From positions 1 through 32,351 of the forward strand of contig JWZX01003326.1 in NCBI GenBank assembly GCA_001275005.1: a stretch of DNA of 32,351 bases. The letters are read 5' to 3'. Below the pieces are notes generated by a model. That model saw only the letters and a program-made list of their open reading frames with translations. It made no database searches and was not told where the DNA came from. The stretch comes from Chrysochromulina tobinii (lineage: Eukaryota). Shown piece by piece: positions 3,074 to 30,685 of the stretch. The position numbers were made by a program, and so were the translations under genes. The number at the start of each line of letters is the position of its first letter. The first letter of the stretch is position 1.

Positions 3074-6000
3074 ATGCGCAAGGCCGAGACGTCCTCGTCC
3101 ATCGAGGTGCACTCGCTCGTGCGCGACCTGAAGAATGCGCCGCAAGAGCATAAAGCGCGAGCTGCCAAGCGGCTGTGTGTGCTGGTGAGCAACCAAGAGG
3201 ATGATGCCAGCGCCGTCGCCCTCGGCGTGGGCGTGCTGCCTGTGCTGATCGGGATGCTGAGCTCCGGCACCGACGGTGGCCAGCTGTACGCGTCCAGCTG
3301 CCTGGCGAGCCTCGCGGCGGCGGGTCACTCGGCCGTCATCGTAAAGGGCGGCGCAATCGGCCCGCTGGTGCAGGTGCTCAAGGTCGGCTCCATGGGAGCT
3401 GTGGCCGCCGCAGCGAGTGCACTGCTCGGGCTCTCGGAGGAGCACGCGCCCGAGCTGATCAAGACGAACGTGACTGCACCCTTCGTGCGCCTGCTCAAGC
3501 AGGGCAACACGGATGCCAGGGAGCACATCGCCTCCATGATCGCCAACTTGTCGCGCGCAAGCTTCGATGCGGAGGCGGCCTTCGTTGGCGCGGGTGCCGT
3601 CGAGGAATTGCTTCGAATGCTCTCGAGCGCCAAGACGTGCAACACCGCCGCGTGGGCGATCGCGAGCCTTTGCAGCTGCTCAGAGCACGTCGAAGCCATC
3701 AGTGCCGCTGGCGGTATCGCCAAGCTGCTCGAGCTGCTGAACACGTCGATCAATACGACGTCGCAGGTGGCGGCGGCCGCGGCCGTATCGAATCTCGCGC
3801 GTGACCACCCGCCGACGCAAACGGCGATCGCCAAGGCGGGTGGCATCGGGCCGCTCCTCGCACTGCTCGCGAGCCGCAGCCCACAGGCGCAGGCGCAGGC
3901 GGCCGAGGCCGTCGGACGGCTCTGCGCGCATCACCGCGACAATCAGGACGCGGTCGGAAGAATGGGAGGGGTCCCCTCACTTGCGGGGCTGCTGGCGTCG
4001 GGCACGCTGCCGGTGCAGGCGATGGCGGCCTTCGCCGTGTGCGAGGCGTGCCGAGGGCACGCCGACAACCAAACGGCCTTCACTGAGCTCGGAGGCATCT
4101 CGAATCTCGTCATGCTCCTGCGCCAGGCCACCTCGCATGTGGCGAGCGGAGTAGCCAGCACCACTACGTCGGACGGCTTCGTCGGACTGCGGCTGAACGC
4201 GGCGTCCGCGGCCGAAGACTTCGAGGCCGCCCGCACCGCGCACTACGAGGCGATCCGTGTCGAGACGGCCGGTGCCCTTTGGATCCTGTCGGAGGCGAGC
4301 GAGGCGAACCGCGTGTCGATCGCCGCCTCGGGCGCCCTTGCGCCGCTTGCGGCGCTGCTCGCGAGCGGCGGCGCGCGCGGCCGGGTGCATGCAACGCATG
4401 CACTCGCGCATCTGGCCATCGAGAATGCGGCGAATCAGCATGGGGTGACCACACTACTCGTGGGGCTGCTCGCTCCGTCCTCAGCGGTCGAGGCGCGAAA
4501 GGCCGCCGCGGAGCTGCTGTGGCGGCTCGTACGAGAGAACGATGCAAGCGTTGAGATCATCGCGGCGGCCAGCAGCGCGAGTGAGCTGGTCGAGTTGCTC
4601 AAGACGAGTGACGCCGACGCACGCGCCTTTGCGCTGTGGGCGCTTTCGCTCGCGATCGACGGCACGAAGCAGGCCACGGTTCTTGAGGTCGGAGGCGTGG
4701 CGCCACTGCTCGCCGTGCTTCGTACGAGTGGCTCGCTGCAACGCGAGCAGGCGGCGGCCGCGCTGGCACGGCTCGCGAACGGCTCGGCGGCCGCGCAGGC
4801 GGCGATCGCGGCCGAGGGAGGTATCTCGCCGCTCCTGAACATTGTCGAGGGCGTCAACTGCCGCGATGGCAAGGAGACGGCTGCGGCGCGTGTGCACGCA
4901 GCGAGCGCAATCGCCTCTCTCGCTCGCCTCGCAGCCAACCGCGACACCATCGTCGAGTCGGGCGGCATCACGCCGCTCGTCGCGCTGCTCAACGATGGTG
5001 AGGACGCGGCCAAGACTGGCGCGGCCGCGGCCCTCGCATGTATCGCTGTGGCCAACGCGAGCACCCCTGGTGCCATCGCGCAATCTGGGGGCCATCTCGC
5101 CCCTCGTGTCGCTGCTCACGGGCGAGCACGGCGCGGCGGCGCAGGAGGCCGCGGCGGGGGCTCTGCATGCGCTCGCGCACGACGCAGACAACCGGATCGC
5201 CATCGCCGAGGCGGGCGCGATAGGTCACCTCGTGCTCTTGCTCGGCTCCGCCAACCCATTGACGAGCGAGTTCGCCGAGGGCGCGCTCGTCCGCCTCTCG
5301 ATTGAGAATAGCAACCGAGAGCTGATCATTCACAAGCTCGTGGGCATGCTGTATGACAAGGGCAGCGAGGCGGGTGGAGAGGAGCAAGCGGCTGCCGCCC
5401 TCGCCAACCTCGCATCCGATTCGGACGCCAACCGCGATTCGATCGTCGAAGCGGGCGGCATCGCACCTTTGCTGTCCCTCCTCGAGACTTCGTCGTCTAC
5501 GAAGGCCAAAGAGAGGGCGATCGGGGCCATCTCGCAGCTCGCCTCGCGCCGCACGATCCAGAAGGAGATCGCCAAGGCAGGCGGCATCCCGCTGCTGGCG
5601 AGCGTGATCATTGCGTCCCAGTCGAATGGCAAGCAGGAGAAGGGGGCCGACATTGGGATCGCATCGAAGCTCTACGCACTCGCCGCCTTTGCCGCGTCGC
5701 AACTCGCCAAGGGCAACCGGCTCAACCAGACTGCGCTCGCCGACGCGGGCGCCATCCAACCGCTCGTCGCGATGCTCGGCTCGCCGAATTCTGACATGCA
5801 GGCCAACGCGGCGTGCGCGCTCGGCACCCTGGCCGAGGCGCACGCTGACAACCAGGCGGCGATTGCGCGGACGGGTGCCATCGCGCCGCTCACGTCCCTC
5901 GTGCGCGAGGGCGCGCCGCTCGTCAAGGAGATGTGCGCCGGCGCGCTCTGGGCGGTGTGTGATGACCATGCGCCCAATAAGTCCACCGTGACGAAACTTG

Positions 6001-9000
6001 GCGGCGTCGAGCCGCTCGTCGGTCTGCTGGTGAGCGGCGGCACCGAAGCGTCGCTGATCGCGTCCGTTGGCGCGCTCGTGTCGCTCGCGACCAAGCACCC
6101 GGAGAACCGCGAGGCGATCGCAAAGCTGCTGGTGGCCCGGCTGTCGAGCCGAGTGGCAATGGCGGGCGCGGGCGCCGTGCGTATGCTCCGGGCCGTCGGC
6201 ATGGTGTGCGATGAGGGCGCGTACCCCGCGAATCAGCTCGCCCTCGCCAAGGCGGGCGGCTTGCCGTCCCTCATAGCGTGGCTGTCGGGCAGCGCCGATG
6301 CGCGCTGGCTCGGGGGCAATCCGGATGCACAGCGCGAGGCGGCGCACGCCGTGCTCTCGATCGTGGCGAACAACGCCACACTGCAGGCAGCCATCGTGCA
6401 GCTCGATGCCATCCCTCCTCTGATTGAGCTCATCATCAAGGCCGAGCAGCAGGCGCAAGCCTACGCCGCACGCACGCTCTTCCATCTGGCCGCCACGCTC
6501 GAAGGCGTCGAGGCGATCGAGGCGGCGGGTGGCGTGGCGCCGCTTGTGCACCTGCTCTCGTCAGAGCATCCCCACCTCGTCGACGTGGGCGCCGTCGTCA
6601 TCTCACGCCTGACGACGTTCTCGGCGCATGCGGTGGCGGTCGCGGGCGGCATCGCACCACTCACGAAGCTGATCTCGATGGGCAGCCACGCCGCGCAGCA
6701 GCACGCGGCGTCGGCGCTGGCCGACATTGGCTCAGTGCCCGCGCATCGCGACGCCATCGCCTTTGGCGCGGAGGGCTCGATCCAGGCGCTCGTGCATCTG
6801 CTCGGTAGCCACGTGGCCGGTACGCCTGAGGTGGCGGCGCGTGCGCTGTCGCAGCTGGCGCGTGACGAAGCCGAGTGCGCCAACGACGGCGGCGTCAAGG
6901 CCATGGAGGCATCCGTGGAGGCGGCGAGCGGCGCGAAGCCTGGCGCGGCTCGTCGGCAGCTCATCCTCGCGTGCGGGGGCATCGACCGGCTGATCGCGAT
7001 GCTCTGGGCCATCCCAAATAAGGGTCTCGCACGGCGTATGTGGGACCTGATCTCGTCCATTGTCGGCTCCAAAGACAGCATCGAGGTGTTGAACGGCGAG
7101 ACCAACTCGATTTTGGATATGCAGAGCGTGGCGATCGCCGCCATGGTCAAGGCACGTGCCACTGAGAAGGCCGCGCTCGCCCAGAAGGTCGAGAAGCAGC
7201 AGCAGCATCGTGCCCAACACGCCGTGCCCGACAAGGAGCGCGTATCGGACAAGGGGAGTCCGTCGCAGAAGCGCTGGCAGGCCATTGCCAACGCTGCGAG
7301 TCCCTCGCGTACCGACGCGGCGCAGCAGCAAGCGCAGCAGCGTGAGGTCGTGGAGGCGCGCGAGGAAGCCGCTCTGGCGCTCGCCGATCTGGCGTACGGT
7401 GACAGCGCGATGCAGAGCGCCATTCTCGCCGCGGGCGGCGTGCCGCCTCTGCTGCGCCTGATCCGCGAGGGCTCGGCCGCCTCGCAAGAGGCGGCCTCCC
7501 GTGCCATCTGGCATCTGTGCGCATCGCTCGAGAGCCAAGGTGTGCTCGTGGCGTGCGGTGCGGTCGAGGAGCTCGTCGCGCTCAGCAGGAATGGCTCACC
7601 CGCCGCGCAGGACACGGCGGCGGCAGTCATCTCAGACCTCGCAAAGGGCGCCATCCTCGAACGTGAACGGCGAGCACGCGACTCGGGCATCGGGCTCGAG
7701 TCGATGCTGGCGGATGAGACGACAGATCCTGAGGAGAGCCTACCACCACCAGCCTCGCCCCTGCCACCAGTGCCGATCCCGCCGCTGGCGCTCCAGCCCT
7801 CAATGAAATCCGTCTTCCACGGCGAGGCACCGCTCCTGCCTTCGCCCATCGCGCAGGCCCCGAGCGAGGTTTTGTTGGGCTCGGCGCAGAGCACTGCCAG
7901 CACTGATTGGAAGCCGCCTCCCGGCGACAGGCTGAACGCAATCGCAGCGGCGGGCGGCATCGTGCCGCTGGTGAGCCTGGTGCAGTCGGGCAGCCAAGCC
8001 GGTAAGGAGCGCGCCGCCTCGGCGCTGTGGCACCTGGCCAACGACCCATCCAGCCAAGTGGCGATCGCCAAGGCGGGCGGCATCGCGCCTCTGGTTCAGC
8101 TCCTTGACGACGGCACGTTGCAAGGCACCATCTTTGCGGCGGATGCACTCACCCACCTCGCACGCGGCCATGCTGACAACCAGGCGGCCATCGCGAAGAA
8201 GCTCGTCGGGCTCCTCGAGGTCGACCGACCCGACGGAACGCTGCGGCGCGCGGCGCGCGCGCTCTGGAAGCTCGCCGACGAGAACGAGGGCGCCCCCGTC
8301 CGCGTGGTCAATGCGGGTGCCATCTCGCCACTCGTCGCACTTCTAGGCTCAGGCTCGATGGAGGCCAAGAGTGAGGCCGTCGGCGCGCTCACCTGCCTGG
8401 CCACCAACGACCCGAAGAGCCAACTCGCGATCGCGACTGGGCTGGTCGCGCTGCTTGGCTCTGGAACGGCCGAGTCGCAGGAGCATGTCACGTGCATGCT
8501 CCTCGGCCTGTCCGAGCAGCCGGACAACCTGCGCGCGATTGCCCACGCGGGCGCGGTGCAACGGCTGATCGTGCAGCTGCGCGGCGGCGGCGCCCTTGAG
8601 GCCGCTTCGGCACGTACCAGCCTGCGTGCGCAGGAGCTCGGCGCTCAAGTGCTCCTGCGCCTGTCCCGGGACGACGAGGCCAACGCCCACGCCATCGTGG
8701 CGCACGGCGGCCTTCGCTACCTCGTGGCACTGCTGAGCGCGGAGAGCGAGGAGGCGCAGGTGAACGCCGCGGACGTCCTGTGCGACGTGGCGCGCCGCTC
8801 GACCGAGATCCAATCTCGAGTGGCAGCCGAGGGAGCGGTCGAGATCCTTGTGAAACTCTTGAGCGCCACTGGACCCCTCCGGGCACGGACCGCCGCGGCG
8901 GGTGCACTCTGGAGCCTCTCGGTCGGTCATGCGGCCATCCAAGCGGCCGTCACCGCCGCTGGAGCGATCCCCGAGCTCGTGCAGCTGCTGTGCACCGACG

Positions 9001-12000
9001 ACGCAGGCGCGCAGCGCCAGGCGGCCGTTGCCCTCGCTGCGCTGGCTGTCGGAGGACACTCGATCCAGGGCAGTATCACGCGCGCGGGGGGCATAGAGCC
9101 CCTCGTCCGTCTGCTCGATGCGGCGGCGGCCCGCACCCAAGGCAGCACCGCGGCCCAAGCCGCGACCGCGCTGGCGGCGCTCGTGGCGAACCATCCCGCA
9201 AACCAGGCGGCCGTCGCCGCCGCGGGCGGCATCGAGCCGCTCGTGGCCATCATTCGCGACGCGGGCGCAGAGGACGCCAAGGAGGAGGCAGCGACAGCCC
9301 TGTGGGCGCTCACGGCCAGCCATCCGCCCAATCAGACCGCCTCGGCCGAGGCGGGCGCGATCGTGCCGCTCATCGCCATGCTTGGAGCGGGAGGCACGCG
9401 TGCGCAGGCGCAGGCTGCGAGCGCACTCGCCTCGATGGCCCTCGGGCACAGCACCAACCAAAGCGAGATCGCGAGCATGCTCGTGCAGCTGCTCAATGCG
9501 GAAGGAGAGGTGGACGAGAGCAAGGGCACGAAGGCCGCCCGCGCTATTTCCCGGCTTGCGCGCGCGCACGAGGCCAACCAAGCGGCCCTCGCGGCTCACG
9601 GCGCCCTCGTGTCGCTCGTGCGCCTGCTACGATGCACATGCCTCGACTACCTGCCCGACGGCGTCACAGCCGCGCTAGGCTCACTCCGCGCGTGCCGCGA
9701 AGTGATGATTGTTGGGGGCACGCCCATCGCCACGCCGCTGCACACACCGCTGCACACGCCGCTGCACACGCCGCTGCACACGCCGCGCTCCCTCAGCAGC
9801 AATCTCCTGCGGCGCGAGATCGCATGCGCACTCTGGAGCATGGCGGATGGCTCGTCCGCCAACCAGGAGGCTATCGCCGCTGAGGGCGGCGTGCCGCTGC
9901 TCATACGCGCTGCTCAGCAAGGACTTTGAGGCGGCAGTGCAACGGGAGGCCGCCGGAGCCCTATGGTCCTTGGCCTCGCAGCTGCCCGCCATCCAGCGGC
10001 GCATTGCGGACTCGGGCGGACTGGCGCCTCTCGTGGGTCTGCTGTCGAGCAGCCACGTGCCCACTCAAGAGACCGCCGCGGGTGCACTTTATAGCCTCGC
10101 ATCCCTCGCGACGAACCGGACCATCATCGCTGAGGTCAAGGGCGTTGCGGCGCTCGTGGGAGTTGTCGAGCGTGGCTCCGCCCAAGGACGGGAGCAGGCC
10201 GCTGGAGCGCTGCTCACTCTTGTGCAGGCCAACTCCGCCAACCAAAGCGCCGTGTCGAGCGAGCTGGTTGCCAAATTGGGCGAGGGCTCGAAGGCGACGG
10301 CCGAGGCGCAGGGCGAGATGACGAATCTGGTGCACCGACTCTCGCTCGACTCGAACAATCGCGCCGCACTCGCAAAGGCCGGCGCTATCCCTGCGCTGGC
10401 CCTTCAGATGCAGAAGGCTGCCAAGGCGGGCGCGCCCGGCGCGCCGCGCACCATGGTCGCCGCCGCGGCGGCCCTCGCGCAGATTGCGCTCAGGTCGCCG
10501 CAGGTGCGGATTCAGGTGACGGCGCAGCTCATCTCACTGCTCGGCGCGCCCGAGCCCGAGGTTCGTCAATGCGCCTCGTCCACCCTGCGCGAGATGGCCG
10601 CCGAGGGCAGCGCCGAGTCGCAGGTGACGGTGGCCACGATGCCCGGCGGTATCGAGCGCATCGTCGCGCTGCTGCGCGAGGGCTCTGTCGAGGCGCAAGA
10701 GTACACGCTCTGGATGCTCGCGGTGATGACGGACGCGGCCTCCAAGAGCTCGATCGCGCACTCCCCATGCACGCGCGCCGTCGTCGAAGTCTTCCGCAAA
10801 AGCTCCGCTGCAGCGGCGAGCGCCGCCGCGGGCAAGGAGCTCCTACCCGAGGGCGCCGTGCTGAGCGCCCTCGCGCAAGAGCACGCGGCGGCGGTGCTCG
10901 CGCTCCTCGCCTCCGACATCCCGGGCGTCGATGAGGAGGTTCGGTCGCGCAACTCGCTCGAAATCTCCGCGTCAGGCGGCATTCGGCCGATGGTGAGGCT
11001 GCTGCGTGACGGGACCGACGGCGCCAAGAGGCACAGCGCCACGGCGCTCACGCAGCTCGCGTGCGGCCCGATGGGGCGCTCGAGCAGCATGCAGATCGAG
11101 ATGGCACGCGCGGGCGCAACGGCCGCCTTCGGCGCGTGGCTTCGCGAGCCGTCGCTCGGCCCTCCAGAGCTCGCAGCGCAGGCGCTCGCCTGCATCGCCA
11201 ACCGCAATGCAGACACGCAGACTCTCATTGCGGAGGAGGGCGCCATCCCGCCGCTCGTGGCGATGCTGCAGGCAGCGGAGCCCTCTGACGAGGCGCAGCG
11301 CTGGGCGGCGAGCGCACTCGCGGCGCTCGCGCAGGACCATCCGGTCAACCAGATCACCATCGCGGAGGAAGGAGCCATCGGTGCGCTCGTTGATCTTCTC
11401 AAGTGCCCCACGTCGGGCGCCGCGCACGAGAATGCGACGCGCGTACTCTGGCACCTGGCAGCCGACACCGACAACCAGTTGAGCGTCGCACGCGCGGGCG
11501 GGCTGGCGCCGCTGGTCGCGATGCTCTCGGCCGAGGCGCCCAAGACACAGGAATGGGCTGCGGCGGCCCTCTCCGCCCTCTCGCTCGACTGCGCCGAAAA
11601 TCAAGTGGCCATCGCACGAGCTGGCGCGATCCCAAGACTCGTGTCGCTCATCGGCTCGCCCAGTGACGAAACCCAGCTCTACGCGCAGGCGGCGCTCGTG
11701 CTCATGGCCAGCTCGTGCCCGCAGACGCGCTGCGCCGTGGTTCAGCCCCTCGTTGAGCTGCTCGATGAGTACCGGCTCGCGACGGCGCAGATGAAGGCTG
11801 CGGAGACGCTCTCGATGCTCGCAGCACGCTCGACCGCCAACCGCACGGCGATTGCCCAGGCGGGCGCCATCGCGCCGCTCGTGCGGCTGCTCGGCGACGG
11901 CACGAACGCGAACAAATCCCAGATCTCCGCCGCGGCCACCTTGGCCGACCTAGCACGCGCGGCCTCGGACCGCGCGGCGATCGCAAGTGCGGGTGGCGTC

Positions 12001-13449
12001 GGTCCACTTGTCGAGATGCTGCGTGCGTCCAACATGGAGGCGCAGGCCAAGGCGGCGGGCGCGCTCTTGCACCTCTCGTCGCTCGCAAGTGCGCAGACGA
12101 GCATCGTCGAGCGCAACGGCATCGCTCTCCTCGTGGCCCTTCTCGACTCCGAGCGTCTGTGTGCGGCCAACCACGCCGCGGGAGCGCTCTGGCAGGTGGC
12201 CTCGACTGCAGCGGCCAAGGGCGCCATCATCAAGGCGGGTGGGCTGACGAAACTCGTGGCGCTGCTGCTGCGCACGGATTCGGCGGAGGCCAAGGAGCCC
12301 ATAGCGGCGCTTCTCGCGGACCTCGCACGCACCGGCCACAAGGGTGACGCAACCAAGGGGACTCTCGTGGCCGCGGGCGGCATCGCGCCGCTCGTCGCGC
12401 TGCTCGAGGCGTCATCTGTCGACGCCCAGAAGCACGCGGCATGCGCACTGTGGGGACTCACAGACGGCGTGTCGGCACATCAAGCGGCCGCGACCGCCGC
12501 CGGAGCGGTGCCGCGGCTCGTCAGCCTTCTCGGGAACGAGAGTGAGGCGCAGGGCTTCGCCGCCGCGGCGCTGTGCAACCTGGCCGAGGATGCGCACGCG
12601 CGCCAGCAGCTCGTCGACGCCGGAGCTGTGAAATCTCTCCAAGAGATCTCCAAGGGGCCTCAGACGTGGCTGCGCACGCAGGCCGTCAACTTGCTCAACC
12701 AGCTCGACGTGTTCGCACCCCCCTCAGATGCGGAGGTCGGTCGGAAGATCCATCTCCAGAAGACAGACCTCCACAAGAGCCAAAAGGTGTCGCTGCAGGC
12801 GGCCGTGGTCGCCGCGAACGCCGCCGCCAAGCTGAATGCGCCTCTCAAGAATGGCGCCATTCTCTTCGATAAGGGCGTGCCGGCGGCAGCGACGGAGACC
12901 TCGAAGGAGGCGGCCCCGCCTCCCAGGGCAGCGGGAGAGGAAGCGCTCGCCGCGGCGCTCGCCAAGGCTGCTGCCGCGTACGAAGCTGCCAAGGCAGTGG
13001 CGGAGGTGGACGAGAATCTTGATGACCATTGCAAGACGCCGAAGGCGAAGCGCACGAGCAAACGGCCTCCCAAGAGTGGCGCCAAGGACAAGGAGCCCCC
13101 GACAACGACGCCAGTGGCGGCCAGAGATACTTCAAGCGCTCCGAACAGCAGCCGCGAGACGGGCGCCGCATCGCGTGACAACTCGCGGCCATCCTCACGA
13201 TCCTCTTCGAGGGTCAACTCACGCAACGTCTCGCCGCGCAACGGCTCGCCGCGCAACGTCTCGCCGCGCAGCGGCTCGCCGCTCAACAGCGCGCGCGCTG
13301 GCTCGCCCAGTGTCTCGGCAGAGCGTGCGCCTACAGGGAACGCTGGAGGGGCGTCGAGAGCTAAGCCACAGCGTAAGCGCACGCCCAGCCCGAACGCGAG
13401 GCGTTCGAGCCCTTCATCGCGAACGGGCGAGAGCGTGAGAATCGCTTGA
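3074..13449 (+). CDS. Giant armadillo/beta-catenin-repeat protein (Vac8-like repeats), ~3,457 aa once two single-base insertions (~5087-5091 and ~9905-9906) are removed
   Basis: Three overlapping ORFs (3074-5305, 4842-9929, 9709-13449) carry dozens of ARM repeats (IA.AGGI.PLV.LL ... AA.ALW.LA ... NQ). The ARM consensus passes from one frame to the next at the overlaps: AIAQSG|AISPLVSLL and GGVPLLI|ALLSKDFEAAVQREAAGALW. The C-terminal tail is S/R/P-rich and disordered. Confidence 0.85.
9731..9786 (+). repeat. 12-nt coding tandem repeat, (TPLH)x4
   Basis: ACGCCGCTGCAC units in a linker between ARM repeats. Confidence 0.85.
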
Positions 13450-13872: not shown

Positions 13873-16800
13873 TCAGATTCGCTTTGCTGTGAGGGCGCCG
13901 TTACAGAGGGTGAAGCTGCGGCCCAGGGTGGGAAATTGTACCTTCTTGCCTTGCTTTGCGATGCCGAAGAGTGGGCAGTCATGGCTGTGAAGGCTGCCTT
14001 TGAAAGTTACCTGGTTGTAAGGTTTTACACCAGATGACTCAGCCACTCGGCGTGCCGTCACTGTTGCTGTTGCGTTGCATTCATTGCAGGTGACCTGTAG
14101 GTCAAATGCTGCGTTGCTCTCAATAGCACGGGCCACTGAGCAAAAAGCAGGCGATGGTGTGCGAATGGGTGTTAGAGGAGAGAACAGGAGAGAATCTATC
14201 ACAGGAATCAGTGCAAGACTTACCTCCTCCCTTGGCTTGAGCAGTCGTGTCCGCCTTGAAGGCCTCGGCGAGGCGCGGCATGAGCGTGGAGAGGCGGGCG
14301 AGCTCGTCGTGGGAGGCGTGGCACGTGCGCCCCCACAACGGCGAATTCGCCACCGGGATCTCCGCGAGCCCGCTCAGCACGCGGAGGATGTTGATCACGC
14401 CCATCGTGGTCTGGACAGCGGCCGCAGGTTCTGCGTTTGGGCCCTTGAGCTTGGGCGAGGATACCACGATGCCGACGAGCTTGCACGTGTTGTCCGGCAT
14501 CTGCACCAGCTTGAGGCCGAAGAGGTGCTTGGCCTGGCCCGGGGTCATCTCGCACTCGGCCACGCTCTTGCCGAAGAGCTTGTAGACGGCGGGGCCGGCG
14601 TGCAAGACAGCGGCGACGGAGCCATCCTCTACAAGTTGATGCAGAGCCTGCAGCTGGCTATCGCCCTGGGCGAGCGCGCCGGGCTTTTCTGGGCTGCAGA
14701 GCGTGGGCAGCACCGAGGCGCTGGCGCAGGCGCGGGCGATTTCGTCCGTCTTCGGCGGCTCCTTGTACGTCGATGGTCTCGAGCCCTTGCCCGCCTGCAC
14801 GTTCTCGTCAAACACGGTCGCGAAGGAGACGTCATTGAGGTGGACCGCCGTGAAGGGGGGGTCTGGCGGATTCGGCGAGAGAAGGGCGGCCTCCAGCATG
14901 GCGGTCTGGAACGTTGGCACTGTGGAGCCGTCCTGGTGGCACACATATGGGCCCTTCTGGGCCGGAAATCGGCTCATGCCCACGTCAGCTAGGTTACGAG
15001 TTGTCTCCAACTGTTGGGCCAAGGGCCAGGACGTGAGCAGACTCCAGATCGCGGCGTTGGGCAACGCAGAGGACCCCATTGGGTTGGTCTCAACTCGAAA
15101 GCCTTTGAGGCAGAGTTCACGGGCCTTGGCCACCCCGGCTTGCACGGCCGCCACATCCGGGCCTGCCACGTGGCTGCTGCGGGCGAGCTCCAGGCAGGCT
15201 TGCAGCCCTGCCAGCAGCGTCGTGAAATTTGGCGAGCCCATCGGCCGGCAATTTGGCACAGCAGCAGCATCAGCAGCAAATGCTGCTACAAGGGCCCCAG
15301 CCTCAACATGGCTGCTGGGAACACCGCCACTGCCGCCGCTGTCGCCACAGCTGCTGGGAACGCCACTGCCGCTGCCGCTGCCACCGCTGCTGCCGCCATT
15401 GGGAACGCCACTGGGAACGCTGTGCTGTGCGGCCCAATGCTCGGGAACGCCGTGGGCAGCCCAATGCTCTGGTGGGATCTCGTACACTTCCACCTCCTCA
15501 TCACTGTCCATGAGCGAAAGGCGAAGGGCCTTCTGCAGCTGTGCTGCATCCCCATCCTCGTCACTGTCAACGACTGGCACTAAGTCACGTCCAAGGGATG
15601 TCGAGTTGACTCGTTTCTTGCCTTCCTTGCGGGCCACCAGAGAGGTCCGAGTTGCTTGGCCTTCCATGGACAGAGCTATTGCTTGCACGAGCCGGGCCTC
15701 CTCAGTCTCAGCCGTATCCAGTGTGCTGACACCAACTGCCCCGCCCGCGCATGCTCCGCCCATCTCTGAACAGAAGCCACCACCGGCCTTGTCACTGTAG
15801 CCGCTGCCGCAGAAATTACTGCCGCCACCTAAGCCATCCGAGAGCATATGTTCGGGCTGGGCGTGGTGCAGCTGCACGGCCAAGGCGGACATTGGCCGCG
15901 AGCTTTGGGTGCTGCCACCGCTTCGACCACCGAAGCTGTCGCCGCTATGGCGCATGGCAGCGGCGGCGGCGCACGCGCCTTCAAGATCGAACGCATAGAG
16001 ATCCGGGTCCGAAACATCAGTGGAGACAGTGGTGAGAGTGGTCTGGAAGCTGCCGAAATTGCCGCCAGTGCTGATGCCATCCGAGAGCAAATGTCTGGGC
16101 TGGGCACGCTGCAGCGGCACGTCCAAGGCTGACATTGGCCTCGAGCCCTGGACGCTGCCGAAGCCACTGCTGCTGAAGCCACTGAGGCCGCCGTAAATGC
16201 CTCCTGGGTGCCGGTTGAAGCCGCTGCCGCCAGCAGCTGCCTTATCTGGCGGTGGCAGTCCTTCCGGCAACTCCACTCCCACCATCATCTCTCCAGGAAC
16301 ATCCCCCGGAGGTCCTGATGGTAGGTCTGGTGGAAGTTCCTCTACAGTCTGGAGCCGATCCGGCCTCTGCAGCCATCTTGGCACCTGATGAAGGAGGTCA
16401 TCAGGTGCATCAGCCGCAGACGGTTGGAGTTCATCAGGCGCAATCAGGCACTCAGGAGGGGCACTCATTAGGTGCAATCAGGCACACTTCACTCACCGGC
16501 TGTGGTCCGCTCTCACACCGGCTGACCTCCGCAATCTTGTCCTCGTGGGCGCCGTGGATCGGAGGCGCCAAACGGTTCTTGAGCGCAGGCATGGTGCTGA
16601 ACAGTGGTGCAGCGTACTTGTGGAGCGGGATGGTCATCGCATTCCACATCTTGAGCACGAGCTGCAGCGGAGTCAGCTGCACGTGCGACCGCTCTGCCGC
16701 AGCGGTTTGCTCGTACGACGGTGGCGCCAGCTTGGGCGGCAGCGCGGGAGCGGCAGGCCGTGGCGGGCCGAGCGCGGCAGACGCACGCGTGGAGCGTGCA

Positions 16801-20155: not shown

Positions 20156-23100
20156 ATGGGAGACTCTCAACAGGTGAACAACCTGCTGCAGCAGCTCGCC
20201 CGGCAAACCGCGTCGCTCGCGCAAGTTCAGGCGGAGTGGGAGCGCCGGCAGTCGGCGACTCCCAGGTCGCTCCGGGTGCGCCTCGGCGATGCAAACTATG
20301 AGGTGCGGCTCGAAGCACTTGAGGAGCTGGCCGAAGCCTTGGGCAACGAGGATCTCTCGCTTGGCGATACAACCATCATTGCGCGGCGCCTGCGCGAGGA
20401 GGGTTCGCTCGCACGGCTCGCCCTGCTTGTGCAGGATGACTCAAATGAGGTGCTCACAAGGGCCCTCTACTGCCTTGGTAACTTGTGCTCCGACTCCTTC
20501 GACACGGCGAGCCGCGAGACGAAGAAACTGCTCTTCGAGCGGGACGGCAGCGGTGCGCGAGCGCGGCGGGGCGTGACGAGCGCTGACCGCTAGCCCACCA
20601 TCGCGAGCCTACCCGCGACCTCCCCCACACCTCCCCTACACCCGTCTGAGCACACGCGAATTATCCCCCACCTTTCGACTCCCGCCCCGCCCGCCCCGCC
20701 CGTCCCGCCCGTGATCTCAGGCATCAGCGGCGCGCTCCTGCGCTGCCTGGCCTCGCCCGACCTCGAGGTGGTCACGTACGCGGCGGGGCTGTGCCTCAAC
20801 CTCTCCAATGAGCACATGTGGTGCCAGTTACTCCTCGAACAGGGTGGCGCGGACCGCTTCGAGGCGATGGTGGCCCATGACGACTCGCTCATCGCGCGCT
20901 ACGCGGCCAGCACGCTGGTGAACATGTCGGCGCGAATCCCGGGGCTCGAGCTCATCCCAACCGTCGAGCGCGACATCAGAAAGTACGGGGACCTCGTCAA
21001 AGCCGTCGAACTCGGGCTAGTGCCTTCGGGCTCGATTGAGAATTGGAGGCCGGCCGCCAATGTCGTGGCGGCGATCGCCGCGCGCGCCTCGCCTCGTGGG
21101 AAGAAGGAGATGCAGGCGGCGGCAGCCCTCTCGCGGGTGCGTAAAGAGGCGGAGATGGCGGCCTTCAAGGCGGAGCAGGAGCGGCAGGTGGCCGAGAGGC
21201 GACGGGCCGAAGAGGAGGAGGCGGCGTATCTTCTGAGGCTCGAGGCTGAGGCGAAGCGCGAGGCGCAGCTGGCGGAACGCGAGCGCCTGAGGCTCGTGGC
21301 CGAGGCGAAGAAGAAAGCAGAGGATGAGGCGGCGGCAGCGACCAAGGTGCAAGCCATCACGCGCGGCCGGTCGGATCGCGAACTGACAAAGGGCCTGAAG
21401 GCGAAGAGAGCGGCAGAGCAAGCGGAGGTGGAGCGCAAGCAGCTTGAGGCGGAGGCGAAGAAACGCGCCGCGGACGAGGCGAAACGACGCGCCGCGCTGG
21501 ATGCGGAAGAGCGCAAGCAGCTTGAGGCGGCGGAGAAGGAGGCGCAATTGGCACGCGAGAGGGAGGAGGCAGAGGCGAAGGCGGCGGCCGAGTTGAAGGC
21601 GGCGGCTGATAAGGCGGCGGCCGAGGCGAAAGCGGCAGCCGACGCAAAGGCGGCGGCCGAGGCGAAGGCAGCGGCCGAGGCGATGGCCGCACGGATGGCA
21701 GCGGAGAACCATGCGGCTACGAGTATCCAAGCCACATTTCGTGGCCGGAGAGATCGCGGGCGCGTGGCGGTCATCCGTCGACAGAACGTCGTCGAGGCCG
21801 ACGCGGCCACCACCATTCAGGCGCACGCACGCGGCCATGCGGACCGTTGCATGGTGGCGAAGCAGCGCGCTCAGATCCTCGCGCGGAGTCGGCTGCACAA
21901 GGGGATCTCTACAGTGAAGCTCACCACGGACATGGAGGCACAAGCCAAGCAGACGGAGCTCGAACGTCGTGCAACGACCAAGATTCAGGCGCGCGTCCGC
22001 GGGCGCTCGGCACGCAAGAAGGTCAAGGCACTCCGTGCCCAAAATGAGGTTGAGCGCCAGGCGGCGACGACGCTGCAGGCGTTCGCGCGCGGGATGCAGG
22101 ACCGCGCGTACGTGTCGGCCATCCGAGCGCAGATTCACAAGGAGCTGCGCGCCGCCATTCGGATGCAGAAGCATGCACGTGCCATGGTCGCGCGGCGGCG
22201 TGTGGCGGCCATGCGGGGGCAGCGTGCCGCCGAGGCTGCCACGCTGCTCGTGGTGGAGGCGGCGCATGCGGCCAAGGAGGCGGCGACGCATGCGGCTGAG
22301 GGGGAGGCGGCGGCGGCGACAGCGGCAGGCACGGCGATGGCTGCCATGACGCAGGCCACGGCCGCAGAGGCTGAGGCGCTCAAGGCCAATGAGAGTGCGC
22401 TCCGCGCCCAAAAGGAGAAGCAAGTCGATGAGTGTACGGCGGCCTCGAGCAAGGCAGTTGAAAGCGTCGCGGTGGCCGCGGCGGCAGTGGAGGCCACGGA
22501 ATCGGTCGTGAGCGCCGCGACCACAAGCGCAACCGCGGCGGCCGAGGCCTCTACGACCGCCCAAACCGCGCTTGCAAAGGCCAAGGAGTGCTTCGCCCAG
22601 GCGACGCACGACCCGCTGCCCTTGGGCACACTGGAGGCGCCGGCTCGCGCCACTCGCGCGGCGGCGATGGAGAGGCTGGAGGCGGCTGCGGAGTCGGCGG
22701 CCGCGGCGGCGCAGTCGGCGCGTGCGGCGGCGGCGTCCCTGGCCAAAGTAGAGATGGCCGTGGCGCGTGCCGGCCAGGCTCATGCCGCCGCCAAGGAGGC
22801 GGCAGTAGCCGCGAGCGCCGCGAGCGCCGCCACGCGCGCGACGGCTGCCAAGGAGCGCCTCAAGAAGCATGCGAGGGCGCAGGTCCTCGCGGCGGGGCTC
22901 CGACTCAAAGCCGAGGAGCTTTCGCGCCAGCGTGCAGAGGCGGCGCGCCGGGCGGCGGCTGCGCGCGCGGGGCTCCGAAAGGCGGGAAGGACGACCGCGT
23001 TCCAGGCGGGTCTCAATCTCAGGGCACAGGAAATGGAGAGGGAGCGTGCACAGGCGGCGGCCGAGGCGGCGGCCGTGGTGGCCGAGGCGGCCGAGGTTGC

Positions 23101-26100
23101 GCTTGCAGCCAGCGAGAGGGCGATGACGGCGGCGGCGGAGGTGGTCTCCGGGGCGGCGGCAGCTGCACAGTCGGCCGCGGAGGCGGCGGACGCTGCAGCA
23201 GAGGCGATGCGTGCGCAAGCGAATGCGGCGGCTGCGGCGGCGACTAAGGACGTTGACGGCTGCATGCAGGCCGCCAAGGCGGCGGGGGCGGCCGCTGCCA
23301 AGGCTGCGACGTCGGCCGCGGCCGCCCAGAGCAAGGTGGCGCCGGCCGTAGAGGGATCGGGCGTGAGCACGGCCGCCGAGCGCGAGGTTGGGGCAGCGCT
23401 GGTGAAGGCCGCCGAGCACGTGGCGAAGGCGTCGCGCGACCCGATGCCCGATGGGCCTGCGGGCGTCGTCGCACTCGAGACGCAGACCGCGGCAAAGAGC
23501 TTCGAAGCGGATGTCAAGATGGCAGCAGTGTCGGTGACCGAGGCGGCGAGGGCGGCGAGCACTGGGATGGTGGAGGCGAAGCAGGCTGCCCACGCGGCCA
23601 CTGACTCCGCGGCCAAGGCCACGGCGGCCGCGGAGGAAGCTGCCGCGATTGTGGCCAAGGCGCGTAAGGAGCAGGCCAAGCGACGCATGCTCAAAGCCGG
23701 CCGGACAGGTGTGATGACGGCCCACCTCCAGAAGCGTGCCGAAGAGATCGAGGCTGAGCGGCAGGCCGAAGCGGCACGCCATCGATGGAAAAAGGGGGGG
23801 CGCGCCGCACTCATGACGGCAAGCCTACAGGCGAGGGCAGAGGAGCTCGAGAGAGATCGCGCCAAGTTTGCGGCCGAGGCTGCCGACGAGGCAGCGCAGG
23901 CGGCGGCCGCGGCGCAGGATGCCGCGCGCAAGGCGCGAGCGGCTGCGGCGGCAGCTGCCACAGCCGCCACCGCCGCGGCAGAGTCGATGGCGTTGGCATC
24001 CGCTTGTGCCATGGATGGCGACAAGGCACGGGAGGCGGTCGACAAAGCGGCTACCACCAACGATCTGGGCCGGGCGATGGTGATGGCCCGCACCGCGTGC
24101 GCGGCGGAGGCGACGGCGAGCGCGGCGGCAGAGCGGGCCAGGGGCGAGGTGGAGCCTGCACGGCAGGGTGCAGAGGCAGCCAAGATGGCGGACGAGGAGG
24201 CGACCGAGGCCCTCAGCAAGGCAGCCGAGGGTGCCGAGAAGGCGTTGCGCGACCCGATGCCCGATGGGCCTGCGGGCGTCGTCGCACTTGAGACGCAGAC
24301 CGCGGCCGAGACGAGCTCCGAAGAGGCCACCAAGGCGTCGGTGGCGGCGTCGAGCGCCTCGGTGGCGGCGGAGACTTGCCTAGGTGAGACGAAGGCCTGT
24401 GCGGCAGCCGCGGCGGAGTCAGCGACCCATGCGCATGCCTCGGCTCAGCGGGCTGCCGAGCGAGCCCAGCTGATCCTCGAGGCTGTGGTGGCTGAGAGGG
24501 CAAGGGCTGTGGGCGAGGCGATGGCCGAGGCCAGGCAGGAGGGCGAGGCGGCCAAGGCGGCGGCACAGAAGGCGGCAGAGGCCGCATCCACCGTTCAGAT
24601 GGCCTCTGACGCTTCCCAAAAGGCGGAGGCGGAGTCCCAAAGTGCCCGCGAGAGCGCCCTCAAGGCAGCCGAGGCACTGCAACTCGAGACGCTCCTTACA
24701 CACGCAGCGGCGAGCTATGAAGCGGCGGGCCGAGCGGCGGCGGCGGCGGCGGCGGCGGCGGGCGGCTTCGAACCGGTGGCCAAGAGCGCGGAGGAGGCAG
24801 AGGCGGCGCGCGCAAACGCTGCGACCGCGCACGCGGCCGCCGACGCGGCACGCGGGAGCGCCGTGACGAGCGCCGAGGGGCCGACCTCCGCTGACAGCGC
24901 CGTGACGAGCACCGTGTCGAGCGCCGTGACGAGCGCCGAGGGGCCGACCTCCGCTGACAGCGCCGTGACGAGCGCCGAGACGAGCGCCGAGACGAGCGCC
25001 GAGGGGCCGACCTCCGCTGCTGGCGGCGAGGGCACCGCGCCCGCCGCCGAGGACGGTGGCGAAAGCAACACGGCTGCCGCCGTTGACGTTCCGAATCCGA
25101 GCGCTTCGGAGCCTTACCAAGCCGCCCGCACGGCCGTCGCCACGCGCCTCGCCGACGCGCTCACAGGCTTGAGCGTCTTAGGGGCGCTGAGTTGGCTCGA
25201 CCCTGGAGTGGTTACGTTTGCCCAGTTGACGTCGCCGTTGCTGATTTGCAAGGGCGAGGCGAAGGCGAACGCCAAGGATGCTGCGGCTGCGGCGGGCGCG
25301 GCCGAGGCGGCCGCGGCCGCGGCGGCCGCCTCGAGCGTCTCAGCGCAGTCTGCCATCGGTGCAGCCGCGTTGTCATGCACGGCCGCCAAAATGGCGGCCG
25401 AGGTAGCGACCGGTAAGGCGCAGGAAGTGCTCGAGACACTCGTGGCCGAGGCGGCCGTGAGTGTGAGCACGGCGGCGCGCGCGACGCAGCAATCAGATGC
25501 GAAGGTGGCGACCTTCGCGGCCCAAACACTCAAGGCGCTCGAGGCCGTGCAGTCGACGGCACTCGAGACGGCGGCCGCCGAGGCAGACACCCTCGCGGCG
25601 CTCGACACGGCGCTCGTGGAGGCGGCCGAGTCGACACGCGTGCGCGAAAAGTGCCTCGGGCCGGGCGAGGCGTATCATGCGGACTCGAGCCTCGCCAAAG
25701 CCAAGGAGGCGGAGGCAGCCGCGAAGCGCGCCGTCGCGGGCGCCGCGGCCACGGAGCATAAGCTCAAGGCAGTCGAAGCGTCCGAGAAGCTCACTTGCGA
25801 GGCCGACGAGGACGCGCAGGCGGCGCTCGCTTTAGGCAATGGGAGCTTGCAATTGGTGCTCGAGCGCGCCGCGCTGGCGACTGGCGCGCGGATGCCGTGG
25901 CTGGCCCCTCAGGAGGCTGGGAAGCCTGTGAGCGCCGCGGCGGGCGCGAGCGTCGACGAGGCCGTTCGGATGGCCCTGGAGGCTGTGAAGCCCGTGAGCG
26001 CCGCGGCGGGCGCGAGCGTCGACGAGGCCGTTCGAATGGCCCTGGAGGCTGTGAAGCCTGTGAGCGCCGCGGCGGGCGCGAGCGTCGACGAGGCCGTTCG

Positions 26101-29100
26101 GATGGCCCTGGAGGCCGCCATAGCCGCAGAGAGATCTGCGAGCACCAGGGCGGCTGCCGCGGATGCGCTCGCGCAAGCGAGGCAGATGACTCAGGCGGCC
26201 GTCGAGCAGGTGACTGATGACCCTTGAGGACCCTTGAGGACCCTTGATGACCCTTGATGACCCTTGATGACCCTTGATTGCCACTGATGATCACTGCTCG
26301 GCTCCGTCGAGCAGGCGACCTTGGCAAAGTGCAGCGCCGTGACCGCGGCCACGCAGGCGCAGGAGGCCCTCGAGGCGGCCATAAAGCGTAAGTTGGGCGA
26401 CGTGGCCCTCGGAGCGATCTTGGCGATGAGCCGCGCCATTCGAGCGTACCGCAAGCGCAAGCGACGCACGCTCGAGATTAACAAGTACGCTGCCGAGAGC
26501 TGGGGGAGCCTCCAAAGCCCTGCATGCACGTGCTCACCACGGCGCCCTTTCGTCACGAGCGCTGGGGGAGCCTCCAAAGCCCTGCATGCATGTGCTCACC
26601 ACGGCGCCCTTTCGTCACGAGCGCTGGGGGAGCCTCAAGAGCTCTGCATGCACGTGCTCACCACGGCGCCCTTTCGTCACGAGCGCTGGGGGAGCCTCCA
26701 AAGCCCTGCATGCATGTGCTCACCACGGCGCCCTCTCGTCACTGACGCGCCGAGCTGCCTGCATGCATATGCTCACTACGGCGCCTCGTCCCCCTCCCCA
26801 CAGGTACGCAGCCGAGCTCTGGGGGGGCCTCTCGGGCGGCGCGCTCGCCGTGGTCGAGGCGACGCGTACCGCCTTCGATGCGTGCTGGGTGCATGCAATG
26901 CGCCGGTTGCATGCGGCCGTTCGGATCCAGGCGCTCTTCAGGTGGAAGGTAGCACACCGCCGGGTAGTGGCCGAGCAGGCAGCGCGCTACGCGGCAGCGT
27001 GCCGGAAGCAGTCGGCATGGCGCGGCTGGCTCGGGAGGCGGATACGCATGCGGCTCGAGGCCCAGATCCGTGCGCACGTCCAACGGATTCAGACGTTTCA
27101 GCGCATGCTCGTGGTGCGTCGCTACTACCGAGTGCGCCTACCAGTGATTCGGACGGATCAGATGCGCATGCGCCTCGCGCGCGCGTGCACGATCAGCGCC
27201 ATCAGCAACGTGCAGGCGGCGCTCAAGGTCGAGTACCAGCGCGCGTATTCGCTCTCGATGGCCAAGCGGGCGGCCGAGGTGCTCGCCCAAGCTGCCGAGG
27301 ATGTCGTCGCCACTGAGGCCGATGCGCACGCTGCCGCGCTCGCCGGTGCCGAGGCAAGTGCGGCGGCGATCGAGGCGGCCAACGGCGCGCTCGCCGCCGA
27401 GCGCGAGGCCCTCGACGCCAAGCAGAGGGCCCTCGAGCAGGTGAGTCTCGTCAATTGCCTCTGATTGCCTCTGATTGCCTCTGATGGCCACTGATGGCCA
27501 CTGATGGAGCCCCCATGCCCCTCGAGCATGTGAGTCTCGTTAATGGCCTCTGATTGCCTCTGATTGCCTCTGACTGCCACTGACGGAGCCCCCATGCCCC
27601 TCGAGCAGCTCTTGGTGCCCTTTGACGCGAGCTTGGGATACGTGACGGCGTCCAAAGGGCTCGACCAGGTCGATCTATGCGCCGTCAAGGCTTCTCTCGC
27701 CGAGGCGGCGGCGAACGAGGTCGTCGGGCACGCCCAGCAGGCGGTCGATTGGGCGGTGCTCGCCAGCCGCCATGCGAGCGCGGCGCGTACGGCCAACGAG
27801 GCCGCCGAGGCGGCCGTGCTGCAGGTGAGTCTCGTCAATTGCCTCTGATGGCCTCTGAGGGCCTCTGAGGGCCTCTGAGGGCCTCTGATGGCCTCTGATT
27901 TGCCGAGGCGGCCGTGCTGCAGGTGCGCTTCGCGCGCAAGCTCATCGTCGTGCTACTCGGCCAGAGCACGGGCAAGACCTTCCAGGCCATCTTTCAGCCA
28001 AACGACGCGATTGGCCAGCAAGCGCTGCAAGTCTTCAAGGCGGCGCAGGCGGACGCGGCGCGCGCCGAGAGGGCGGCCGCGGCCGTCGGCGCGAATGCTG
28101 GCAACTCGACGCGCAACGCGCACCGCGCCGAAACGGCGGCCGCGCGCGCGCAGAAGGCGCTCAGCACGGCGCGCGACGCGGCGGACCTGGCGGCGCAGCA
28201 GGCTGTGAACGCAGTCGTGCTGTCTGTGAAGCGCGCGCAACGCATCCGATCCTCGCTCTTCCACAACGACTTGGACGCCACCGCCGTTTTCGGCGAGCCT
28301 TCGCCGCCGCTCATCTCACCACGCACCAAGAACAGCTCGCCACAACGCTCCAGCTCGCCGCCCCGCTCAGCGACGCGCTCGTCGATGCGCAGCGCGCACG
28401 CCGGCGGTGGTTCCACGCTCGGCGGTGGCAGCTTCGCGCCGCCGCAATTCGAGCCGCCGCCGGCGCCGCTCTTCCGCGAGGGCTCGTTGGCGGCGGAACT
28501 GGCGGCGAAACATGCGCCGCCGCCGCCCACGCCGCCCCTCCCCTCATCCCCCCGCTCGCCCTCCCCCTCATTGGATCCTTACCCATCATACCCATCGGAC
28601 TCGGACACAGAGTTGGGGCACCGTCCCTCACCCAGCGGCCGCTCCAACCAGCCCCCCGCCCACGACGGCGCGCCCTCGCCCAGCGGCCGCTCCAACCAGC
28701 CCCCCGCCCACGACGGCGCGCCCTCGCCCAACGGCCGCTCCAACCAGCCCCCCGCCCACGACGGCGCGCCCTCGCCCAACGGCCGCTCCAACCAGCCCCC
28801 CGCCCACGACGGCGCGCCGACGCCCCGCCCGCCACGGCGCGCGCGCGCTCCCGCGGTGGTGGGCGCCGATTTCGTCAGGCTCGAGGACGGGAGCATTGCG
28901 CTCGTCGATCTGGTACGCGACGATCGAGGGCCCGTCTTGGCGCCGCTCAAGCCGAAGCCGTACACGGGCGGCCTGTCTAGGCAAGGCTCCAGAGGTGCGC
29001 TGACGTATGCTGGTACACATGGCGATCATGCATGCACGTGCTCACCACGGCGCCTCGTCCCCCTCCCCACAGGTACACATGGCGATCGGAGTGCTGGCAC

Positions 29101-30685
29101 GGCGGCGGGAACTCCCATATTAGGAAGTCCAGACAAGCCGTTGCCCCCTGTGCGCCATCCTTCCCAAAGCCTTGGCGCGACGCCCCGGCAACAGGCATCC
29201 CATATTAGGCAACAGGCATCCCATATTAGGCAACAGGCATCCCACGCCACCGCGCGCCCTGCCACGAGCTGGGTGCCTACGCCAGCGCCTCTGGCGGGAT
29301 TGCACGCCACCGCGCGCCCCGCCACGAGCTGGGTGCCTAAGCCCGCGTCCCTCGCGTCCCTCCCGCCTCGCGACGCGACGGCCTCCGCGGCGACAGGGCC
29401 GTCCCATCCGGCGTCCCATCCGACGTCCCATCAAGGAGCACCCATGGGGCGGTATGCGTGGGAGAACCAGGGACTACGTGCGCTCCCCTCGAGTATGTAC
29501 GAGCGGGTGGTGACGGCCAGCCGCGAGGGAATGGCGACTCCGCAAGCGCGCTCGGCGGCGTCCACTCCATACCATGCCAAGCCATACGAGCTCGATCGAT
29601 CTCGATACGATCTCGAGGCGGGCCTCGAGGTCGAGTGGCCAACGACGTCCATGCCGTCCGTACCCTCTGCCCAGCCTCACTCGGCCAACAGGGCTGCGAC
29701 GGGCCGCTCGGTGCGTCCCACCGCCACGTCGAGCGCCGTGTCGAGCGCGGGGCTACAGCTCGACCCGGAGATTTTCGCGAGCTACACGGGGCCACAGCAC
29801 GAGACGCGCCCGCCCACGACGGCGGACGGCAAGCCGCTGGGCACGCCGCAGCCCCAGCTCGCCGCGCCGCGTTGGGCGCGCGCTTCGGTCGCGCAGAGGA
29901 TGGAGAAGGCGAGCGCCGACGGGCGGCTCCCCGCGCTGCTCTCGCCGGCAGACCACCGCACGTGGAGCTTCGAGCAAGGAGACTTCGAGAAGGCCGAGCG
30001 CCGTTTCGAGCGCCAGGATCGGCGCGAGCGGCGCCTGCAGCGCCGGGCGGCGCGCCAGGCAGCGGCCGAGCGCCGTGACGGGCGCACCGCGGAGGGGCGG
30101 CACTCAAATCCTCAGCCGACCCACCTACATGGAGACGCGGAGATGTGGACTGGGGCTGGCCAGATGCAGCCAGATGCAGATGCAGCCAGATGCAGCCAGA
30201 TGCAGCCACCGCCCTCGCCCTCGTATCGACCCCGGACGACGCCGATCGACGAAGAGCCCGAAGGGTCCAGGTACTTTGACGGCGACGACGAGGGCGACGA
30301 GGGAGGCGACCGGACGACCGACGAAGAGGCGATCGACGAGGAGGAGCGCTTCCTAATTAGGGATGAGCGCTTCCTAATTAGGGAGGAGCGCTTCCTCGTC
30401 GACCAATACGGCCCCCGGATGCACCCAGTGCCGCTCTCGTCGGTGTCGCCACGGCCGCCAGGGCACGGCCACTCGCCGCCCAACACGGCGCCCATGCATG
30501 CACACAGCCCACGCAGGCGGCGCAACGCAGGGCGCGCAGCTGCACCGCCGGCGGGAGGGATGCTGTCCCAGCAGGCACAAGGACAAGCACAGCCGCGCGG
30601 CCGAACGCCTGCAAGCTTCGCGTCGTATGATGAGGCTGCCATGTGGCTCGGCGCCCGGCCGCGCGTGCTCACAGCGCCGGCGTGA
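20156..30685 (+). CDS. Giant protein, ~3,203 aa: N-terminal ARM repeats, charged coiled coil, ~9 IQ calmodulin-binding motifs, long Ala-rich helical repeats, Pro/Ser-rich disordered tail. Predicted exons 20156-20552, 20721-26209, 26315-26484, 26804-27440, 27609-27824, 27923-29012, 29073-30685
   Basis: GT-AG introns join the 145-, 1838-, 331-, 292-, 94- and 923-aa ORFs in frame (exon total 9,612 nt). IQ motifs include VQAITRGRSDR, IQATFRGRRDR, IQAHARGHADR, IQARVRGRSAR, LQAFARGMQDR, MQKHARAMVAR, IQALFRWKVAH and KQSAWRGWLGR. The ARM-like segment is LARLALLVQDDSNEVLTRALYCLGNL. Confidence 0.75.
20553..20720 (+). other. Spliceosomal intron (168 nt, phase 1)
   Basis: GTGCGC donor and a C-rich tract ending TCTCAG. 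Removal joins ...RDGS|GISGALLRCL in frame and skips the stop at 20591-20593. Confidence 0.75.
24857..25020 (+). repeat. Coding repeat SAVTSAEGPTSAD / SAET
   Basis: Three copies of ACGAGCGCCGAGGGGCCGACCTCCGCTG interleaved with 12-nt units. Confidence 0.85.
25922..26115 (+). repeat. 66-nt coding tandem repeat x3 (KPVSAAAGASVDEAVRMALEAV)
   Basis: Units start at 25922, 25988 and 26054 and are nearly identical. Confidence 0.9.
26210..26314 (+). mobile_element. Introner-like intron (105 nt), 10-nt repeat type
   Basis: GT...AG. The body is (CCCTTGATGA/CCCTTGAGGA)x6. CCGTCGAGCAG occurs at 26199-26209 (exon end) and again at 26304-26314 (intron end). Removal restores the frame (VEQ|ATLAK). Confidence 0.7.
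26485..26803 (+). mobile_element. Introner-like intron (319 nt), acceptor-carrying type, with four internal 62-nt tandem units
   Basis: It starts GTACGCTGCCGAGAGCTGGGGGAGCCTC, a degenerate copy of the downstream exon start GTACGCAGCCGAGCTCTGGGGGGGCCTC. Units begin at 26499, 26561, 26623 and 26685. It ends ...CCTCGTCCCCCTCCCCACAG. Removal gives INK|YAAELW in frame. Confidence 0.7.
27441..27608 (+). mobile_element. Introner-like intron (168 nt), a tandem dimer of the GTGAGTCTCGT 10-nt repeat element
   Basis: GTGAGTCTCGTCAATTGCCTCTGAT head, then CTGATTGCCT/CTGATGGCCA repeats. CCCTCGAGCAG occurs at 27430-27440 and 27598-27608. A second element copy starts at 27530 after CCCTCGAGCAT. Confidence 0.75.
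27825..27922 (+). mobile_element. Introner-like intron (98 nt), GTGAGTCTCGT 10-nt repeat type
   Basis: The first 25 nt are identical to the 27441 intron. The body is (GCCTCTGAKK)x6. A perfect 21-nt copy of the upstream exon end (27804-27824 = 27902-27922) supplies the AG. Confidence 0.8.
28625..28816 (+). repeat. 48-nt coding tandem repeat x4 (PSPSGRSNQPPAHDGA)
   Basis: Nearly identical units with period 48 from 28625. Confidence 0.9.
29013..29072 (+). mobile_element. Introner-like intron (60 nt, in frame), acceptor-carrying type
   Basis: A 44-nt insert (29028-29071) lies between perfect 16-nt direct repeats GGTACACATGGCGATC (29012-29027 and 29072-29087). Positions 29030-29072 match 26761-26803 at 40 of 43 nt. 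Confidence 0.75.

Follow-up and report, generated by a model that had tools for sequence, protein, structure and literature searches.

Introns bearing copies of their flanking exons in Chrysochromulina tobinii may descend from one another by template-switch repair

Five consecutive introns in a single gene of Chrysochromulina tobinii each carry a copy of the adjoining exon. The original prediction, made from the DNA letters, had claimed this and was borne out, with boundaries at 26210, 26485, 27441, 27825 and 29013. Their relatives populate many other genes. We rate the chances as evenly balanced that such introns arose by template-switch repair which copied existing introns, a proposal read from the sequences of bodies and junctions. 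The evidence favours this route over a transposon with fixed ends or an excised-intron RNA, because the junctions possess microhomology and some copies extend beyond the splice sites of their parents.

The five introns and their host gene

The window, i.e., the whole stretch of 32,351 nucleotides analysed, contains on its forward strand a gene for an Ala-rich IQ-motif protein (20816..30685). Counted from the earliest ATG in the long exon, the protein has 3,039 aa; the real start probably lies upstream of 20816. All five introns are on the same strand. Taking them out leaves a single frame of 3,039 aa from 20816, in agreement with the predicted restoration of the protein. Retention of intron 1, 2, 3 or 4 truncates the frame at 1,803, 2,131, 2,074 or 2,146 aa, respectively. 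Intron 5, if retained, is in frame and has no stop.

Intron 1 (26210..26314) brings its own GT and an array of 10-mers with a branch-point-like CTGAY. The final 11 nt of the upstream exon (26199-26209) recur exactly at 26304-26314 and supply its acceptor. Intron 3 (27441..27608) is also donor-carrying; it closes with an exact 11-nt repeat of the sequence that ends the upstream exon, and this repeat supplies the AG. The unit of intron 3 is doubled, the second unit starting at 27530, and the internal acceptor reads CAT in place of CAG. This change (27527-27530) abolishes a zero-length exon. Intron 4 (27825..27922) has the donor head of intron 3. Its last 21 nt are an exact copy of the upstream exon, and with 3 nt on the donor side the duplication comprises 24 nt (27804-27827 and 27902-27925) across AG|GTG. 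Since the duplicate spans AG|GT, the target of intron 4 already contained AG|GT.

Introns 2 and 5 are the mirror image, they carry the acceptor. Intron 2 (26485..26803) consists of four 62-nt units with a core in each, followed by a core, a pyrimidine tract and AG. Its donor stems from the segment 26485-26512, which matches the beginning of the following exon (26804-26831) in 24 of 28 positions. In intron 5 (29013..29072) the first 15 nt reproduce the beginning of the following exon exactly (plus 1 nt) and supply the GT; a 25-nt core with the presumed branch point follows (29030-29054), and its tract is, among all loci, common only to intron 2. Thus, the claim that one splice site comes from the copy and the other from foreign sequence stands for introns 1, 2, 3 and 5, whereas intron 4 could take both from its target. 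The bodies were also described as tandem repeats, which does not apply to intron 5.

The copies are far beyond chance. None of 10,001 random GT..AG pairs from two coding regions of the window reached 11 nt and only 3 reached 8 nt. The best match between the ends of the five introns in inverted orientation is 3-5 of 10 nt, i.e., terminal inverted repeats are lacking. Long and variable duplications in the absence of inverted repeats were foreseen correctly.

The host gene also contains coding tandem repeats (24856-26115, 28625-28825, 29187-29244) with units of 63, 66, 48 and 21 nt, some of which vary in copy number among wild RNA contigs. They represent the same tendency to duplicate with the insert absent. 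Neither longer homologues of the middle exon of the host gene nor homologous viral loci were found. The host can be assigned to the C. parva/tobinii group because a single-exon transporter in the window is identical to a Chrysochromulina parva protein in 549 of 554 positions. A sixth related intron is predicted outside the five on the reverse strand (16385..16496); it has a 10-mer-type body and a repeat-type acceptor, and a long duplication is not visible. A long armadillo-repeat gene (3074-13449) is split into three overlapping frames (3074-5305, 4866-9929, 9847-13449); its two frame breaks, with no obvious intron, may be due to assembly slips or gene decay.

Splicing

Mapping of RNA had been suggested to confirm the junctions. 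In RNA contigs from freshwater runs, intron 1 is skipped at GT..AG in run X16, intron 2 in runs X14 and X16, and introns 3 and 5 in run X15. These joints are from contigs of wild relatives, not from this strain, and an intronless allele in the relatives may formally be an alternative source. No joint for intron 4 is among those listed from two mappings of RNA runs; its splicing is predicted from the reading frame. Against such an allele, introns 2 and 3 also occur unspliced in other RNA runs. The second read mapping did not find an orthologous DNA contig from runs X19 and X21.

A genome-wide population

Dispersed copies of the core were predicted, and indeed they abound. When the core of introns 2 and 5 was searched for, at least 131 stretches matched (about 790 estimated), and they were kept as 127 metagenome loci, in which the core resides in introns of many unrelated genes. 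All population counts rest on these 0.70 Mb of partly redundant loci. They contain 153 distinct core elements, 141 of them scorable. A copy of the next exon start scoring at least 10 is present in 85 of the 141, compared to 0.6% with shuffled partners. The 85 duplications are 11 to 46 nt long with a smooth length distribution; those of donor-type introns measure 10 to 35 nt (n=28). In 71 of the 85 duplicated core introns the base preceding the donor is G. The single-core introns are 55-96 nt long, apart from one of 118. Most of them consist only of duplicate, filler, core and tract, and a remnant of an older intron is absent. Duplication length and filler length are inversely related (rho -0.67, n=86), a trade-off which fits a length filter. 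The duplication is perfect in 34 of 85 cases. This suggests a range of ages or later homogenisation.

A motif search in the 127 loci and the window yielded 345 distinct inserts with flanks (169 10-mer arrays, 167 cores, 9 with both). A long flanking duplication, with a score of at least 12, accompanies 191 of the 345 (55%), against 1.8% for shuffled flanks, and the expectation of duplications beyond chance is met at this scale, too. At random places the figure is 11%; coding repeats and the inserts themselves are frequent, which raises it above the shuffled one. A GT..AG in register is possible in 116 of the 191 duplicated inserts as opposed to 13 for the reverse-strand control CT..AC. Among the repeat bodies there are 18 cases in which the duplicate holds both splice sites. 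The orientation of 325 inserts is 177 sense and 8 antisense, with 140 unassignable. At a distance of 5-10 kb from the searched hit 34 inserts were counted in 162,806 bases. The genome, as given in the available text of PMC4580454, has 59 Mb and 16,777 genes with about one intron per gene. Scaled to the whole genome, this density would correspond to an order of ten thousand such inserts, an estimate biased upward because the contigs were selected by a hit.

Several further observations concern the inserts. In four loci (L034, L052, L093, L010) the duplicates in register with the acceptor begin with GA or AT, not GT; non-canonical or mutated donors are possible. In the 345 inserts the sense strand contains the telomere-like hexamer CCCTAA 21 times and its complement never; perhaps the hexamer is no more than a portion of a CTAAT branch motif. 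In L028, L038, L047 and L005 inserts lie back to back with a very short exon or none in between, which suggests that existing introns were hit repeatedly. The core pattern had no hit in viral contigs and the donor head none in prokaryote genomes. The single matched contig of a viral collection (L001, 21-38) has at its end the donor head which introns 3 and 4 have in common; this is host DNA or a virus-borne copy. A match of one repeat to Rfam SNORD66 was sub-threshold and was dropped.

One parent sequence behind both mirror forms

Two mirror-image types had been proposed. Both forms exist, but they are not separate elements, for both bodies occur in both forms. The 10-mer body is found with its own donor and also with its own acceptor (16 cases listed, two rows from the window being false pairings). 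Conversely, the core is also located inside the donor-carrying introns of L055, L066 and L047. In these three loci the donor is followed without interruption by at least one 10-mer and the core; L082 also links the parent sequence. Because of this contiguity the two mirror forms are, on the strength of their sequences, the 5' and 3' parts of a single intron lineage. CTGAY or CTCAC, present in both bodies, are predicted branch-point-like motifs. Each copy shares part of the parent intron, and the remainder is target copy and filler; similarity from end to end is not seen.

Junctions and parent-daughter pairs

At the points where the duplicate abuts parent sequence, the two overlap by at least 2 nt in 13 of 18 junctions and by at least 3 nt in 8 of 18 (null 19% and 6%). 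This strict count supersedes a looser one of 19/24. At least 3 nt are shared with the next exon start in 16 of 28 donor-type introns, a few nested cases included (null 1.6%). On the exon side, pairs of introns with similar bodies are no more alike than the rest (2.07 vs 1.95 shared nt).

Individual pairs are most instructive. L029 holds the intron end of L024 together with 7 nt of L024's exon, and there are 6-nt matches at both joins. L057 holds the end of the upstream exon of L056, again with a 6-nt match. L017 contains the 5' part of the intron of L048/L063, along with the duplicate which that intron itself possesses. In L111 and L115 the filler resembles the duplicate of L089. Because copies run past the splice sites of the parent into its exons, the template evidently had the exon joined to the intron, i.e., it was DNA or unspliced pre-mRNA. 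A 13-mer hit elsewhere was found for 48 of 90 fillers, mostly by chance; only hits adjoining a core, among the matches listed, were used. The pairs L037/L055, L048/L063 and L064/L069 were left aside, they are paralogues or partial matches.

Do the inserts always produce a proper intron? In L003 repeats of 23 nt flank a core which is preceded by a stop codon and lacks an acceptor. A 43-nt duplication and a doubled repeat-type insert distinguish L016 from L005, which is 96% identical and has a single copy; the insert of L016 adjoins an existing donor and lengthens that intron. Because of these cases it is likely that the intron-making process needs no perfect splice geometry and that selection supplies it. 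The strain-specific insert in L016 (about 300-465) comprises 162 nt in frame with no stop, tolerable spliced or unspliced.

Sharing between neighbouring introns is clear in single cases: introns 2/5 and 3/4 of the window, L026, and four introns of L066 with a rare variant. Over all loci it is weak. In permutations the linker gave 35/5,000 and the tract 482/5,000; sharing of core haplotypes within the same locus was negative (3,886/5,000).

Age

A comparison of orthologues was proposed as a check for ancient intron positions. A sister lineage with 87% protein identity over the middle exon possesses, at introns 2 and 3, the same positions and the same intron families, the head of intron 3 included. 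Therefore, these two introns are older than that split and not strain-recent. No empty allele was detected among 142 junctions; one 75% paralogous repeat lacks the intron. The only filled/empty pair, L016/L005, is situated at an existing donor, and an empty allele of a whole intron was not encountered. Unit numbers vary between alleles.

Origin of the introns

In the mechanism which we propose, a broken or stalled DNA end would switch template at a few matching bases and would copy 40-80 nt of an existing intron locus. The copied end would rejoin upstream of its departure point, by which the target would be duplicated over 10-46 nt. An AG|GT or G|GT in the target may provide one of the two microhomologies. 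Selection would retain sense copies only, those which bring a branch point, have a splice site in the duplicate and are about 60-95 nt long. Each new intron could then serve as a template for the next, and later recombination between duplicates could multiply the units. Polymerase theta would be a candidate enzyme. The original prediction had offered target-primed reverse transcription or templated repair. Templated repair fits best, whereas a simple target-primed copying of an excised intron fits poorly as copies include exon of the parent. Several observations count against template switching: introns 2 and 3 are shared with a sister lineage, no empty allele turned up among the 142 junctions, introns with similar bodies lack extra exon-side similarity, and sharing between neighbouring introns is patchy. 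In addition, the left edge of the core is strongly preferred, being confined to one or two bases in 101 of 178 cases, and looks like the end of an element.

This preferred edge would suit a non-autonomous copy-and-paste element mobilised by an HUH transposase, Replitron- or Helitron-like, with one end fixed at a dinucleotide, the other fuzzy with parent flank, and a variable duplication. The captured parent flanks and the position of donor-type inserts after AG agree with such an element as well. Replitron-1 of Chlamydomonas reinhardtii has RG targets, fuzzy parent-flank ends and variable duplications, and C. tobinii, too, is reported to have one Replitron protein (both in PMC10288648). The footprint described there for Replitron-1/N1 shares with our introns the variable duplication, the extra parent-derived sequence at one end and the dinucleotide at the other. 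Yet Replitrons are 0.9-3.6 kb long, have short terminal direct repeats and a known transposase, and intron formation is not part of that description; none of these features were found here. Furthermore, both ends vary, and the apparently fixed end can be either end of the intron. About a third of the non-exact cores (34/110) are cut inside the conserved part. The core hairpin is no better than shuffles (z 0.14), and no longer element common to the loci was found. An insert usually terminates at a splice site; L029 overruns it and L003 stops short. We consider an HUH element unlikely.

The strong sense bias would be expected from selection, and also from an RNA template. A retroelement enzyme of the LINE, RTE or Penelope-like kind might prime at a staggered nick, copy unspliced pre-mRNA and jump at short matches. 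Target-primed reverse transcription typically leaves long duplications of variable length and one ragged end, and microhomology is known at retroelement junctions, too. The partial likeness of neighbouring introns in one gene, named above for the window, L026 and L066, is compatible with such a template, and introners derived from non-LTR elements do exist, according to the portion of PMC12130899 at hand. However, neither a poly(A) nor a fixed tail was seen among the copies listed, and both ends vary. The copies cross both splice sites, so the excised intron was not the template. In many pairs parent and daughter are on separate contigs, and there copying from RNA would be expected to produce inserts in both orientations. 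On balance, a retroelement appears quite unlikely.

Finally, the introns might be old, with ends rewritten later by local duplication and exchange among introns. The positions shared with the sister lineage, the location of the sole filled/empty pair at an existing donor and the differing unit numbers point in this direction. Against it stand the plain composition of most single-core introns with no older remnant, the 34 perfect duplications out of 85, and four other introns in the window without these bodies. We regard this possibility as very improbable. A conventional cut-and-paste introner (MITE) is hardly credible despite a splice-site logic as in known introners, given that inverted repeats are missing, neither the duplication length nor the ends are fixed, and the length distribution contradicts it.

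Returning to template-switch repair, we place somewhat below an even chance the wider proposition of a self-feeding intron population that operates with no transposon. Host repair would be templated by introns, proto-splice sites would be the priming match, thousands of introns would be descended from each other, perhaps a large share of the introns of the genome, and parentage would be readable in captured flanks.

Comparison with known systems

Introners were reported in at least 21 marine Chrysochromulina MAGs, and the example figured has a 4-bp duplication (PMC9860276 Fig. 2C). Among 62 of the 214 mentions in its supplement the duplication is not given in most rows. Some of these introners may be of the same kind as ours, compared by description rather than by sequence. 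In the sections available of a 2025 introner survey, C. tobinii has 0 families and one Emiliania family has 10-bp terminal direct repeats (PMC12130899). Introner classes of Polarella and Symbiodinium are described in the preprint text at hand with fixed 3-8 nt duplications (bioRxiv 10.1101/2020.10.14.339549). Like published introners, the present population comprises many related introns, nearly all genic and in sense orientation; one splice site is carried, the other is from the duplicate, and the message is exactly restored. In contrast to those introners with their fixed 3-8 nt duplications and defined ends, ours have duplications of 10-46 nt, ragged ends and flanks captured from the parent, and a single parent sequence underlies both mirror forms.

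New introns of Daphnia pulex were ascribed to the repair of staggered breaks with 4-12 bp repeats, as far as the excerpted PMC4202315 goes. As here, the exon end is repeated at the far end of the intron, and internal repeats come from repeated events. The Daphnia inserts, however, are AT-rich and mostly of unknown source in that text, while in our case the source is introns of the same genome and the copies form families.

Intron gain by tandem duplication of an exon segment with AG|GT is a known route. It resembles intron 4 and the 18 repeat-body cases in that both sites are in the duplicate; it differs in that here a foreign, family-related insert brings the branch point. Nothing closer was found in the parts of PMC11282704 and PMC8469720 that were available, and a search of the literature outside subscription papers found no description of this intron population. 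In a broad sense it acts as an introner, lacks hallmarks of the TIR and retro-type introners and bears repair-like scars.

Significance

This analysis contributes the mirror form, a parent sequence common to both forms, the microhomology at junctions and the sharing with a sister lineage. On the scale of a genome, the population combines scars of a repair-like kind with a filling of copied introns. Half of each intron being unique, such a class may escape introner screens which depend on similarity. The alga has been cultured and sequenced, and the mechanism can thus be tested. If true, the proposal would explain why proto-splice sites attract introns, and it would provide pairs of parent and daughter introns whose descent can be traced.
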